Part shown: positions 52,037-59,975 of the stretch, piece after piece | Layout: every line of letters begins with the position of its first letter | How positions within the stretch are numbered: the first letter of the stretch is position 1 | Assembly (NCBI GenBank): GCA_049517335.1 | Contig: JBEKSD010000001.1 | Span: 92,776 to 156,775, forward strand | DNA length: 64,000 nt | DNA from: Candidatus Omnitrophota bacterium | GTDB lineage: Bacteria > Omnitrophota > Gorgyraeia > Gygaellales > Profunditerraquicolaceae | Reading direction: 5' to 3' | Program-made: the position numbers and the translations under genes | Notes under the pieces: generated by a model | Databases searched by the model: none | Told to the model about the DNA's origin: nothing | The model's input: only the letters and a program-made list of their open reading frames with translations

Positions 52037-54952
52037 GTGCTTATGAATAAAGTTTTGGAAGGTTTAAATAACGAGCAGGTTAAGGCAGTAACCCATAAAG
52101 AGGGACCGCTTCTTATAATCGCCGGCGCAGGTACAGGTAAAACCTCGGTTATTACCCGTAGGATTTCTTGGCTTATTTCAGAAGGGTTTGCCAAGACTGA
52201 GGAAATTTTAGCGCTTACCTTTACGGATAAAGCCGCGAAAGAGATGCAGGAGCGAGTGGATATCCTGCTTCCTTATGGTTATACGGATATATGGATTTCT
52301 ACGTTTCACGCTTTCGGAGACAGGCTACTGCGTGAAAACGCGCTGCTTTACGGATTAAGTCCCGATTTTAAGATTTTGACCCAGTCGGAAGCCGCGGTTT
52401 TTTTCCGCGAGCATTTGTTTGAATTCAATTTATCATACTTTCGGCCCCTCTCTGAACCTACCCGTTTCATTGAAGCCCTTATTTCATTTTTCAGTCGCGC
52501 CAAAGATGAAGATATCTCACCAAAAGATTATCTGAAATATGCTCAGGATTTTATGATTCAGGCGAAGAATAATTCAGGCGATGCGGCTTTGCAGGAAGAA
52601 GCAGAGCTTCAGATGGAGGTAGCCCTGGCTTACCTAAAATATCAGGAACTTTTAACAAAAGAGGGGTTGTTAGATTTTGGAAACCAGTTTTATCTTGCTT
52701 TACAGCTTTTGCGCGAGCACCCGATGGCATTAAAGAGATACCAGGATCAGTTTAAATATATCTTAGTTGATGAATTTCAGGATACTAATTTTGCGCAGTA
52801 TCAATTGGCGCGCCTGCTTGCCGGGGGCTACAATAATATAACCGTGACAGGGGATGATGATCAGTGTATTTACCGTTTCCGCGGAGCGGCTTATTCCAAC
52901 CTTTTAAGTTTTATGCAGGATTTTCCCAAAGCGTCCAAGGTGAGCTTAATCCAGAACTACCGCTCAACTCAAAGTATCCTTGATTCAGCTTACCGCTTAA
53001 TTCAGCAGAATAATCCGGAGCGTTTTGAGGCCAAGGCTGGCATAGACAAGCGTCTGATTAGCATCTTTAAAGAAGGAAAAACGCCGGAGCATTTACATTT
53101 TGATACGCGCTCCACCGAAGCGGATAATGTCGCCCGTATAATTAAGGAAAAAGTATCAGTGGCAAAATATAAATTCCGTGATTTCGCTATCCTCGTGCGT
53201 TCTAATTCAGACGCGGATAGTTTCCTGCAAGCATTGAACATACAGGATATCCCTTGGCAGTTTAGTGGCAATCAAGGTCTGTACGCAAGGGAAGAGGTGA
53301 AGCTTTGCATAAATTTCCTGCGCGTTATCGCTAACCCTTCCGATTCATTGAGCCTTTATTATTTGGCAAGCTCTGAGGTCTATCCGATTGAGCTTTCGGA
53401 TCTTGTTATTTGTAATCATTATGCCCGCCGCCGCAATAAAACTTTATATGCGGTACTAAGGGAGCTGCAAACTATTCCTGATTTATCCGGCGTATGTGAG
53501 GAATCAAAAAAGAAAATAGAGGGACTCATCGGTGATATTGATAAATACCTTAAAATCGCCCGCGAAGAGACGACAGGACGGCTGCTTTATTCATTTTTGA
53601 CCGAATCTAGTTATTTAAAGAAGCTGACCAAAGAACAAACTTTGGAGAGTGAAAGCAAGATTCTGAATCTTGCTAAGTTTTTTAACCATGTGCGCGATTT
53701 TGAGCTGGTGGCAAAAGAAGACAGGGTATTCTGTTTTGTGAATTACCTCAATCTCCTGATTGAAGCCGGAGATGATCCTCCTACGGTAGAAGCTGATTTG
53801 GATTCTGACGCGGTTAATGTGCTCACGATACATAAGGCTAAAGGTCTTGAATTCAGGGTAGTATTCATGGTCAGCCTTGTTCAGGGTCGCTTTCCTTGGC
53901 CGCGCAGGGCGCAGTCAATTGAACTGCCTAATTCCTTAATCAAGGAAGTCTTGCCTATGGGTGATTTCCATATTCAAGAAGAAAGACGCCTGTTTTACGT
54001 GGGTATGACGCGTGCAAAAGAAGAGCTCTATCTAACCAGTGCCGAAGATTACGGCGGAAAGCGCCTGAAGCGGATAAGCCAGTTTGTTTTTGAGGCCTTG
54101 GGAACAGAGAATAAAGAAAAAGAAAAAAAGAAAGCAAGCGCGCTTGAAGCGATAGAGCGGTTTGCCTTTAAGAAAGAACCGGTAAAATCAAATCTTAAAT
54201 CCGCATCCGTAGATAAACCGCTTTCATTAAGTTATTACCAGATTGATGATTATCTTACCTGTCCCCTAAAATACAAATATGTAAATATTCTGCGCGTGCC
54301 CATTACGGAGCACCATACGGTAATTTACGGACGGGCAATGCATGATGCGGTGAGTAGTTATTTCCAGTATAAAATGGCGGGTCGAGAAATTACCGTTGCC
54401 GGGCTATTGGGATTATTTAGAGAGAGTTTTGACCCTCAGGGGTTTCTGGATTTGAAGCATCAGGAGGAACGGCTCAGGGTGGGCGAGCAGGCATTAATCC
54501 GTTTTTTTAACGATGAAAAAGTGCGTAACGCTAAGCCGAAATTCATTGAAAAGGAATTTTCTTTTCACCTTGGAGAGATAAAGATCTCGGGAAGGTTTGA
54601 CCGGGTGGATGAGGATAAAGAAGGAGTAGTTATTATTGACTTTAAGACCTCGGATATTAAAACCCAGAAGGACGCGGATAAACGGTTTAAAGAAAATAAG
54701 CAGCTTATCCTTTACTCGCTTGCTTATAGAAATATATTCAGTTTACTGCCTGCGAAAGTTGAGCTTTTTTTCCTTGAATCGGGCCTGACTGCCGGCAGGG
54801 GGGTAGCAGAAGAAGATTTTGCAGCGGTAATTGAAGAAATTGAAGCAGTTGCTTCGGGCATACGGAGTGAAAATTTCAGAGCTACTCCCTCCTATAACAA
54901 TTGCAATTATTGCGCTTATAACCAGATCTGTCCTTTTGTGTTGGTGAGGTAG
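52037..54952 (+). CDS. UvrD/PcrA-family helicase fused to a C-terminal Cas4/RecB-like Fe-S PD-(D/E)XK nuclease
   Basis: Walker A AGAGTGKTS and helicase motifs through about residue 650. The C-terminal roughly 250 aa carry the four-Cys pattern CPLKY..CNYCAYNQIC, plus acidic/Lys nuclease motifs (IIDFKTSD). Confidence 0.8.
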   Translation: MLMNKVLEGLNNEQVKAVTHKEGPLLIIAGAGTGKTSVITRRISWLISEGFAKTEEILALTFTDKAAKEMQERVDILLPYGYTDIWISTFHAFGDRLLRENALLYGLSPDFKILTQSEAAVFFREHLFEFNLSYFRPLSEPTRFIEALISFFSRAKDEDISPKDYLKYAQDFMIQAKNNSGDAALQEEAELQMEVALAYLKYQELLTKEGLLDFGNQFYLALQLLREHPMALKRYQDQFKYILVDEFQDTNFAQYQLARLLAGGYNNITVTGDDDQCIYRFRGAAYSNLLSFMQDFPKASKVSLIQNYRSTQSILDSAYRLIQQNNPERFEAKAGIDKRLISIFKEGKTPEHLHFDTRSTEADNVARIIKEKVSVAKYKFRDFAILVRSNSDADSFLQALNIQDIPWQFSGNQGLYAREEVKLCINFLRVIANPSDSLSLYYLASSEVYPIELSDLVICNHYARRRNKTLYAVLRELQTIPDLSGVCEESKKKIEGLIGDIDKYLKIAREETTGRLLYSFLTESSYLKKLTKEQTLESESKILNLAKFFNHVRDFELVAKEDRVFCFVNYLNLLIEAGDDPPTVEADLDSDAVNVLTIHKAKGLEFRVVFMVSLVQGRFPWPRRAQSIELPNSLIKEVLPMGDFHIQEERRLFYVGMTRAKEELYLTSAEDYGGKRLKRISQFVFEALGTENKEKEKKKASALEAIERFAFKKEPVKSNLKSASVDKPLSLSYYQIDDYLTCPLKYKYVNILRVPITEHHTVIYGRAMHDAVSSYFQYKMAGREITVAGLLGLFRESFDPQGFLDLKHQEERLRVGEQALIRFFNDEKVRNAKPKFIEKEFSFHLGEIKISGRFDRVDEDKEGVVIIDFKTSDIKTQKDADKRFKENKQLILYSLAYRNIFSLLPAKVELFFLESGLTAGRGVAEEDFAAVIEEIEAVASGIRSENFRATPSYNNCNYCAYNQICPFVLVR

Positions 54953-54954
54953 TT

Positions 54955-55128
54955 ATGGAAGCAAAGATTGGGCATTTGAAGGTGTCTATATTTAAGATAA
55001 AAAACCGCTGCGGTTATGCTACGGTGTGTTTTGACCATCTTACCGAAGGAGAAACTCCTCAGGTTGCATACGAGCGTATGGTCAAGGCGCTGCGCAGGAC
55101 AAACAAAGAAGAAACGGGTAAAAAATGA
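54955..55128 (+). CDS. unannotated 57-aa ORF coupled between the helicase-nuclease and the deaminase
   Basis: ATG at 54955 lies 3 nt after the helicase TAG, with GGTGAGG as RBS. It translates to MEAKIGHLKVSIFKIKNRCGYATVCFDHLTEGETPQVAYERMVKALRRTNKEETGKK. Its TGA stop (55126-28) overlaps the deaminase ATG (55125) as ATGA. It falls below the track's 60-aa cutoff. Confidence 0.45.
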   Translation: MEAKIGHLKVSIFKIKNRCGYATVCFDHLTEGETPQVAYERMVKALRRTNKEETGKK

Positions 55129-55595
55129 TGCAGAAAAAATATATGTGCCTTGCTATAAAAGAAGCAGAGCTCAACTTAAAAAATATAGACGGAGGGCCTT
55201 TCGGCGCCTGCATTGTAAAGGGGAATAAAATTTTGGCTGTCGCCCGCAGCACCGTATTAAAAAATGACGCCACCTCGCACGCTGAAATTAACGCGATACG
55301 CAAGGCTTCTAAAAAGATAAGGAATTTTGATTTAAGCGGCGCGGTACTATATTCAACGACTGAGCCCTGCCCCATGTGTTTTAGCGCTACTCACTGGGCG
55401 CGTATCTCAACCATTGTTTATGGGACAAATATATCCGATGCCAAAAGAATCGGCTTTAACGAACTCAAAATCAGTAATTTCAAGATTAAGCGTATGGGAA
55501 AGAGTAAGATTAAGATAGTTAAGGGTTTTATGCTCAAGGAGTGCCGGAAACTCTTTGAGGACTGGGGCTCACTGGAGAATAAAAGGCTCTATTAA
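55125..55595 (+). CDS. CDA-family nucleoside/nucleotide deaminase (guanine deaminase GuaD / TadA-like)
   Basis: GGPFGACIVKGN, HAEINAI, PCPMC zinc-binding motifs, at about 156 aa length. Confidence 0.7.
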   Translation: MMQKKYMCLAIKEAELNLKNIDGGPFGACIVKGNKILAVARSTVLKNDATSHAEINAIRKASKKIRNFDLSGAVLYSTTEPCPMCFSATHWARISTIVYGTNISDAKRIGFNELKISNFKIKRMGKSKIKIVKGFMLKECRKLFEDWGSLENKRLY

Positions 55596-59333: not shown

Positions 59334-59975
59334 ATGACTAGATCTTTGAATAATATTGAACAGAAAATGAAAGATTTGGATATTGGCTCGTTACGGTATC
59401 ATATCCTGGAGAATGCCAAAAATTTTAAGGTCTCTTGGGTAGAGTTAGGCAGATCTTTATACACCGTATGGAAAGAAAAGCTTTATAAGGATTGGGGATA
59501 TAGCACTCTTGACGCTTATGCGGGAAAGGAAATCGGTATCCGCAAGCAGACCGCGATGAAACTGCTTAAGTCTTATTATTTTCTGGAAAAAGAAGAGCCG
59601 CAATATTTAAAGCAGGAGTATATACAAAACGCGCAGGCGTCACGTGTCCCGAGTTATGAATCGGTAGACCTCCTGCGTAAGGCTAAATCCAAAAAAACTC
59701 TTGATACGCAGGATTACGCGGATATTAAAAAAGGGGTGTTTGAGAACGGCAAAGACGCGCAGGAAATCAGGAAGGACCTTACCGCGCTCATCAGGCAGAG
59801 GCAGGAACTTGAACCTGAAGAAGCCTATGAAAGAAAAAGGCTTGCTACGGTGCGCAGGTTCCTGGGGACTTTAAAGGCGCTTAAGAAAGAAGTTGAAATA
59901 GCCAAGCTCTTGCCCGGCCCCCTGATTGAGGAGATAAATGCGTTGGTAAGTAAGCTTGAGGAAGAATTAAGGTAA
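59334..59975 (+). CDS. hypothetical protein with an HTH-like segment
   Basis: No family recognised. LDAYAGKEIGIRKQTAMKLLKS looks like a helix-turn-helix. The C-terminus is a charged helical region. The stop is followed by an AGGTAAAGGA x2 tandem. Confidence 0.4.
   Translation: MTRSLNNIEQKMKDLDIGSLRYHILENAKNFKVSWVELGRSLYTVWKEKLYKDWGYSTLDAYAGKEIGIRKQTAMKLLKSYYFLEKEEPQYLKQEYIQNAQASRVPSYESVDLLRKAKSKKTLDTQDYADIKKGVFENGKDAQEIRKDLTALIRQRQELEPEEAYERKRLATVRRFLGTLKALKKEVEIAKLLPGPLIEEINALVSKLEEELR

Follow-up and report, generated by a model that had tools for sequence, protein, structure and literature searches.

A 64,000-nucleotide (nt) stretch of DNA from a Candidatus Omnitrophota bacterium (assembly GCA_049517335.1, contig JBEKSD010000001.1, positions 92,776 to 156,775 of the forward strand; called the window in the following) contains, between a helicase-nuclease gene and a deaminase gene, a small open reading frame (ORF) of 57 codons at positions 54955..55128, which encodes a genuine small protein under purifying selection. 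The best explanation overall, which we consider rather probable, is a real gene for a basic small protein with a stand-alone role, whose position in a trio with its two neighbours does not denote a functional module. The features that define the locus are:

54955..55128, forward strand: gene for the conserved basic small protein of 57 amino acids (aa) (MEAKIGHLKVSIFKIKNRCGYATVCFDHLTEGETPQVAYERMVKALRRTNKEETGKK), supported by homologues, intact frames in relatives, the ratio of non-synonymous to synonymous polymorphism (pN/pS), AlphaFold2 (AF2) models and gene calls by NCBI and JGI.
54943..54949, forward strand: Shine-Dalgarno (SD)-like motif GGTGAGG within the last helicase codons, 5 nt 5' of the small-gene ATG.
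55016..55228, forward strand: out-of-frame 70-aa ORF without a Pfam match, the frame of which is broken in relatives.

A lone open frame of 57 codons at 43% G+C is compatible with chance and not significant without comparison; it is comparative conservation, and not ORF length, that marks this frame as more than a chance product. Among 5.8 billion proteins, a word-indexed search picked out 141 relatives with 67-91% identity and lengths of 51-70 aa (one of 95 aa), and all named homologues among them originate from Omnitrophota metagenome-assembled genomes, the only kind of genome by which the phylum is represented here. When one genome per GTDB species was scanned, 127 contained a relative, and 80 loci were retained, each from a different assembly and each the single copy of the gene in that assembly (80/80 sampled). 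All but two of these 80 species-level loci have an uninterrupted frame of 51-62 aa whose start is in register; in one exception masked N breaks up the frame, and in the other a simple start rule failed. Conservation of the small ORF in related genomes, proposed as a check in a preliminary description of the stretch made from the sequence alone, is thus found in about 80 species.

Over a 43-codon core in 79 loci the small ORF shows a pN/pS of 0.18, with nucleotide diversities of 0.18, 0.12 and 0.56 at codon positions 1, 2 and 3. The two alternative frames carry stops within the conserved core in 73 and 77 of the 79 loci and show pN/pS values of 1.5-2.0. The codon-level constraint together with the broken other frames singles out the 57-aa frame over the 70-aa ORF and excludes a leader or RNA reading. 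The 70-aa ORF is rejected as a gene, in agreement with the preliminary description, which had judged it the less plausible of the two. The segment between helicase and deaminase could be imagined to be a structured RNA, an intergenic leader or an upstream ORF with a regulatory role, because the ORF is short and 57-codon frames arise randomly in AT-rich DNA, but this alternative is effectively refuted by the intact frames and the constraint at codon level: more than 100 genomes keep the amino acid sequence despite unrelated flanks, variation is concentrated at third positions, a confident folded model was obtained, and Rfam yields nothing above chance (none at the locus at the E-value threshold, none in the whole window or in eight relatives at the gathering threshold).

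Read directly from the sequence, the ATG at 54955 opens 57 codons and the TGA stop occupies 55126-55128. The helicase-nuclease ORF stops with TAG at 54950-54952 and is followed by the two-nucleotide spacer TT; the preliminary description had placed the ATG 3 nt past this stop, which holds for the first base of the ATG, being the third after the stop, and not for the spacer. At the 3' end the TGA and the deaminase ATG (55125-55127) overlap by 4 nt as ATGA, and a second in-frame deaminase ATG is located at 55128. The frame with its ATGA overlap, the GGTGAGG in front of it and the peptide, which equals the translation exactly, were all correctly described before. In many relatives AAGGAGG or GGAGG occupies the equivalent position, and the SD of the small gene (GGTGAGG/GAGGT, well spaced) is among the better matches of the window genes. 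The ORF had been called missed, but it was absent only from the track of that reader. The ORF listing of the window contains both the 57-aa and the 70-aa ORF, NCBI carries an identical protein (hypothetical protein ABSE81_00715 [Candidatus Omnitrophota bacterium]), and the gene is also called on JGI contig Ga0427963_0002438, where the gene order is that of the window.

The small protein belongs to an uncurated family that is confined, according to the named sources, to Omnitrophota and related metagenomic lineages. An alignment of 120 sequences (A1) has 17 invariant positions and the core FKIxNRxGYAA ... LTEGxT ... R(M/L)xKAxRR; when divergent members are added, F13, N17, R18, G20, A22, L29-T30-E31-G32, R41, K44-A45 and R48 remain. 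When 1.84 billion cluster representatives were searched exhaustively with HMMER, only 42 clusters matched, all of them short except for one spurious long protein. A metagenome scan seeded with six sequences of divergent members delivered 457 additional stretches, which constitute a divergent subfamily of the form MAKKxLKKLxxxKVxIFKIKNRRGYAAICxNNLTEGRTxxQAxxRMxKAVKRxGYEL. Members of the main subfamily have a mean isoelectric point (pI) of 9.8 and a net charge of +6, those of the divergent subfamily a mean pI of 11.0 and a net charge of +13 over 64 aa, with extra Lys/Arg-rich tails. At the same loci the small protein is 71-81% identical to that of the window; for comparison, PNPase and L28 reach 73-79%, RecJ 57-66% and the deaminase 45-66%. 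A metal site formed by H7, C25 and H28, which are invariant in the main subfamily, was considered and discarded, as these residues are not kept by divergent members. Searches of Pfam (with the single protein and with the 120 members, E up to 10), NCBIfam, PHROGs and PDB sequence profiles gave no family match, in line with the earlier statement that the peptide fits no nameable family, and in the literature on Omnitrophota nothing relevant was found on the small protein together with a deaminase. The singleton cluster P0154 (92 aa, on a 537-nt contig in ENA) switches into the core of the small-protein family at a shared FKVKNR; its N-terminal two thirds presumably resemble an HU/IHF-type DNA-binding protein, and it may have arisen as a chimera during assembly or be a natural fusion.

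Structure prediction gives an antiparallel sheet of four strands, against which a single long C-terminal helix is packed. With alignment A1 the best AF2 model reaches a predicted local distance difference test (pLDDT) score of 90.2, two of the five models being high and three at 62-70; with a more diverse alignment (A3) all five models score 89-91.5 and have identical topology. The strands are predicted at residues 2-5, 8-14, 21-25 and 28-32 and the helix at 35-55. In these models the topology appears to come closest to the beta-beta-beta-alpha portion of double-stranded RNA-binding domain (dsRBD)-like folds and to the N-terminal domain of HicB; Foldseek searches against PDB and BFVD (viral models) delivered no match with E below 0.06. 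Despite this look the small protein joins neither family when sequences are compared. Unlike the dsRBDs of RDE-4, TRBP, Dicer, Staufen and ADAR2, it is without the N-terminal helix alpha1 and carries an extra N-terminal strand instead, and the dsRBD order alpha1-beta1-beta2-beta3-alpha2 is not matched. Alignments A1 and A3 contain neither the GPxH loop nor the KKxAK motif of dsRBD helix alpha2; the basic residues of the small protein are found in the latter half of its helix, whereas KKxAK stands at the helix N-terminus. None of the 120 members matches Pfam dsrm (PF00035) or the Pfam HicB families (PF15919, PF15970) at E up to 10.

The flanking genes of the window were classified as follows:

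52037..54952, forward strand: UvrD/PcrA-type superfamily 1 helicase with a C-terminal PD-(D/E)XK nuclease (Cas4/AddB-like, Cys-rich), by Pfam.
55125..55595, forward strand: 156-aa CDA-fold zinc deaminase of the guanine/guanosine deaminase type, by Pfam and PDB matches.

The longest helicase-nuclease ORF has 971 aa (969 aa in the JGI call) and matches UvrD-helicase (6e-75), UvrD_C (8e-54) and PDDEXK_1 (2e-35) within one chain, with a weak match to Cas_Cas4, as the preliminary description had proposed; it stays below the NCBIfam equivalog cut-offs for PcrA, Rep, UvrD and AddA. The deaminase had been assigned to the CDA family, which agrees with its match to dCMP_cyt_deam_1 (8e-23; MafB19-type also) and can be made more exact. 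Its best solved relatives are Arabidopsis guanosine deaminase (7dbf, 2.5e-26) and Bacillus subtilis guanine deaminase (1wkq, 1.6e-23), the alignment with 1wkq reaching the C-terminal Tyr (Y156, the last residue), and its translation contains the zinc motifs SHAEINAI (H-A-E) and EPCPMC (P-C-x-x-C). TadA was rejected as its identity (69 bits against a cut-off of 150 for NCBIfam NF008113; TadA structures at about 1e-13). By sequence the enzyme appears closest to the guanosine/guanine deaminases of purine-base salvage rather than to nucleic-acid editors.

The wider surroundings are housekeeping genes: ArgRS, RecJ and L28 on one side and, further on, AdoMet decarboxylase, rpsO and PNPase. Every window ORF of at least 120 aa that is not overlapped by a longer one lies on the forward strand; L28 (51732..51962) lies on the minus strand. 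No tRNA genes (ARAGORN) and no Rfam families at gathering score were found in the 64 kb. A 213-aa protein without a Pfam match is encoded 4.2 kb downstream of the small gene (59334..59975, forward strand), and homologues with 42-44% identity stand one or two genes from divergent members of the small-protein family in four metagenomic loci (L094:4067-4717; L099; L101/L102:5433-6065).

No terminator-like hairpin was detected between the three genes, and promoter-like matches occur at chance rate (13 found, 11.5 expected). The 2-nt spacing and the 4-nt overlap on one strand suggest that the small gene is translated from a common mRNA, and co-transcription of all three genes is most likely. Initiation at the small gene would use the SD that lies within the 3' end of the helicase gene. 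An SD-like motif is missing at 19 of 36 sampled gene starts of the window, and none was found at the start of the deaminase, which may depend on ribosomes that have just finished translating the small gene or on SD-independent initiation. Translational coupling on both sides, as proposed before, is thus consistent with the stop/start geometry and the missing terminator; the coupling itself is a reading of that geometry.

In related genomes the neighbourhood changes around the small gene. Among the 80 species-level loci and 89 further loci, the order helicase-nuclease, small gene, deaminase occurs only in L001 and L002, which belong to the lineage of the window. This trio is therefore a lineage-specific gene order and a local accident, not a functional module, and the idea of an unrecognised operon linking DNA processing with nucleotide deamination is not upheld: the small ORF is kept in relatives, its flanks are not. 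A helicase-nuclease gene stands upstream in 11-15 of the 80 loci, at a gap that varies from 2 to 77 nt; variable spacing had been named in the preliminary description as an argument against its reading. These loci are from close relatives that share the synteny block ArgRS-RecJ-L28-helicase, and in most of them a second small ORF, rpsO and pnp follow, with no deaminase directly downstream. In about 36 loci the small gene is preceded by XerC-KdtA-GreA-[FCY1-type cytosine deaminase]-[249-aa membrane protein] and followed by [141-aa membrane protein]-[UbiA]-GuaD-type deaminase-OsmC/STAS-PilZ. The remaining neighbours include inositol monophosphatase, radical SAM, Smr, PAP2, PilZ, TruD, M48 peptidase, GemA-like, IMPDH/GMP-reductase-like, SIR2, MoxR and Rex proteins, and divergent members follow AddA/AddB-like genes or YchF, are flanked by a Y-family polymerase and an alkylation-repair gene, or precede TrpRS/TyrRS or UDG, among other arrangements. 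The constant feature is that the small gene is nearly always located 0-25 nt behind a gene on the same strand, whichever gene this is.

A link to deaminases is recurrent, but not obligatory. Fully flanked main-subfamily loci have a GuaD-type gene within 2.5 kb in 25 of 59 cases, and direct neighbours of this type occur in at least four distinct gene settings, on either side of the small gene; most of the positive loci, however, share one ancestral GreA block and are not independent. No CDA-fold deaminase was found in the 89 divergent-subfamily loci. Upstream of the small gene, 12 relatives encode an FCY1-type cytosine deaminase that matches yeast FCY1 over its full length (1uaq/1ox7, about 1e-38):

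FCY1-type gene 2-3 nt upstream of the small gene: L010:5560-5997, L034, L035, L039, L040, L043, L045, L049 and L061.
FCY1-type gene one gene further upstream: L047, L048 and L050.

As a guanine-deaminase-type paralogue follows one or two genes downstream at these loci, the small gene is bracketed there by two different nucleobase deaminases. A further neighbour from purine metabolism, an IMPDH/GMP-reductase-domain protein, is encoded directly downstream of the small gene at L018:6251-7411.

Several observations concern other neighbours. Proteins similar to phage Mu GemA (PF06252, 5e-9 and 2e-10) adjoin the small gene in unrelated contexts (L005:5613-6026; L030:6167-6550; the same cluster at L078). 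The second small ORF of the helicase-class loci (about 50-54 aa, MVERSEFKGKPVLVIKRDENDQYPFSFGLSKAKLILENIEEIKKFVEE...) lies between the small gene and rpsO and is 83-98% identical over 12 of these loci (L015:6256-6402; L022:6252-6407; L026:6256-6411; L051:5647-5802; eight more). It is equipped with a conserved promoter-like TTGTAT...TATACAAT and with an AAGGAG SD, matches no Pfam family and gave no tblastn hit in the 64-kb window. About 40-70 nt upstream of rpsO a TTGACTT-N17-TATAAT promoter is present in 9 of 9 loci (L008, L013, L014, L015, L022, L026, L029, L051 and L065), indicating that these Omnitrophota use sigma-70 consensus promoters; the rpsO SD of the same nine loci is GGAGGTGA or GGGGGTGA, and no Rfam S15 leader was detected before rpsO.

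The function that we favour, giving it about an even chance, is that of a stand-alone nucleic-acid-binding housekeeping factor, as suggested by charge, analogy of fold and conservation. Such a factor could be ribosome- or RNA-associated or nucleoid- or DNA-repair-associated, with no preference between the two. Contact would be made by a conserved basic hairpin (K14, K16, N17, R18) and by a basic stripe on the helix (R41, K44, R47, R48). The protein probably does not serve either window neighbour as a dedicated subunit: it is very highly charged (pI 9.8 in the main and 11 in the divergent subfamily), is conserved to a similar degree as L28 and PNPase, occurs in one copy in each sampled assembly and has constantly changing neighbours, all of which speaks for a stand-alone role on nucleic acid. 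Small basic nucleic-acid binders encoded by single genes, such as lineage-specific ribosomal proteins, HPF and Sso7d-type proteins, offer an analogy only, and no sequence relation to them was found. Three observations weigh against the favoured function. The canonical RNA-binding motifs of dsRBDs are not in the alignment, the frequency of nearby GuaD-type genes exceeds what a purely stand-alone role leads one to expect, and helicase-nuclease or DNA-repair genes recur beside the small gene, including beside a very divergent member.

The recurrent deaminase neighbours would be accounted for if the small protein were an accessory, targeting, regulatory or stabilising partner of the guanine-deaminase-type enzyme, for example a dsRBD-like module that guides it to structured RNA or DNA in a split ADAR-like arrangement. 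We consider such a partnership unlikely, as 34 of the 59 main-subfamily loci are without a deaminase within 2.5 kb, the divergent loci are without one altogether, and the positive loci come mostly from the GreA block. Moreover, the best matches of the enzyme, down to its C-terminal Tyr, are deaminases of free bases or nucleosides, and the small protein is without dsRBD sequence motifs. A more specific ADAR-like system, in which the small protein would attach to structured RNA, or to DNA ends that the helicase-nuclease produces, and bring in the neighbouring CDA-fold enzyme to deaminate bases within the polynucleotide, is very doubtful. DNA repair provides another possible partner, since the UvrD-PD-(D/E)XK gene stands immediately upstream in the helicase-class loci with RecJ nearby, a PDDEXK_1 protein is encoded upstream in L054, the very divergent P0139 directly follows an AddA-like/AddB-like pair, P0125 has a Y-family polymerase on one side and a DNA-alkylation repair gene on the other, and a UDG-family gene is found downstream in L109 and L129. 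That the small protein assists the helicase-nuclease or other repair machinery as a DNA-binding accessory is nevertheless improbable: about 65 of the 80 main-subfamily loci and nearly all divergent loci have no helicase upstream, no repair gene adjoins the small gene in most loci, the helicase-class loci are closely related and represent one synteny block, and translation-related neighbours (YchF, TrpRS, rpsO, TruD) are about equally frequent.

The possible resemblance to the HicB N-terminal domain raises the question of an orphan HicB/UPF0150-type antitoxin N-domain, left over from a toxin-antitoxin system or acting as its solo component, which we regard as highly improbable. Comparison with E. 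coli HicB by hhalign (the sequence of 6hpb_B, taken singly or with a homologue alignment consisting mostly of E. coli fragments of low diversity) gives a probability of just 5-8% and a P of about 0.004-0.007 over 20-22 columns, and the aligned part is the strand-to-helix junction only (LTEGETPQVAYERMVKAL against LTQGETVAEAMEAAKDAL). There is no significant profile similarity to the HicB N-domain or UPF0150 proteins (PDB 6g1c, 6u0i, 2dsy TTHA0281), and Pfam finds no HicB match. In contrast to HicB the small protein ends after the helix, without a C-terminal DNA-binding domain, and neither a HicA-like gene nor any other constant small partner was found in about 125 flanked loci. It is also far more basic than HicB/UPF0150 proteins, and its single copy per assembly sampled, its housekeeping contexts and the strong purifying selection are unlike those of mobile toxin-antitoxin modules.

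The family is known in databases only as 'hypothetical protein' and is without a curated model, while its fold class is familiar. Small proteins of this kind routinely stay hypothetical and without Pfam models, and a family definition based on FKIxNRxGYAA...LTEGxT...RMxKAxRR would improve their annotation. The locus also illustrates that a tight stop/start overlap in a compact genome is alone no proof of a functional module. The recurrent, non-obligatory adjacency to guanine- and cytosine-deaminase-type genes denotes a partial affinity for nucleobase-deaminase genes; should the split ADAR-like reading be true, it would represent a bacterial editing or damage-processing activity so far undescribed. 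If the favoured stand-alone role is true, the small protein would be a candidate for a lineage-specific ribosome-, RNA- or nucleoid-associated factor of the Omnitrophota.
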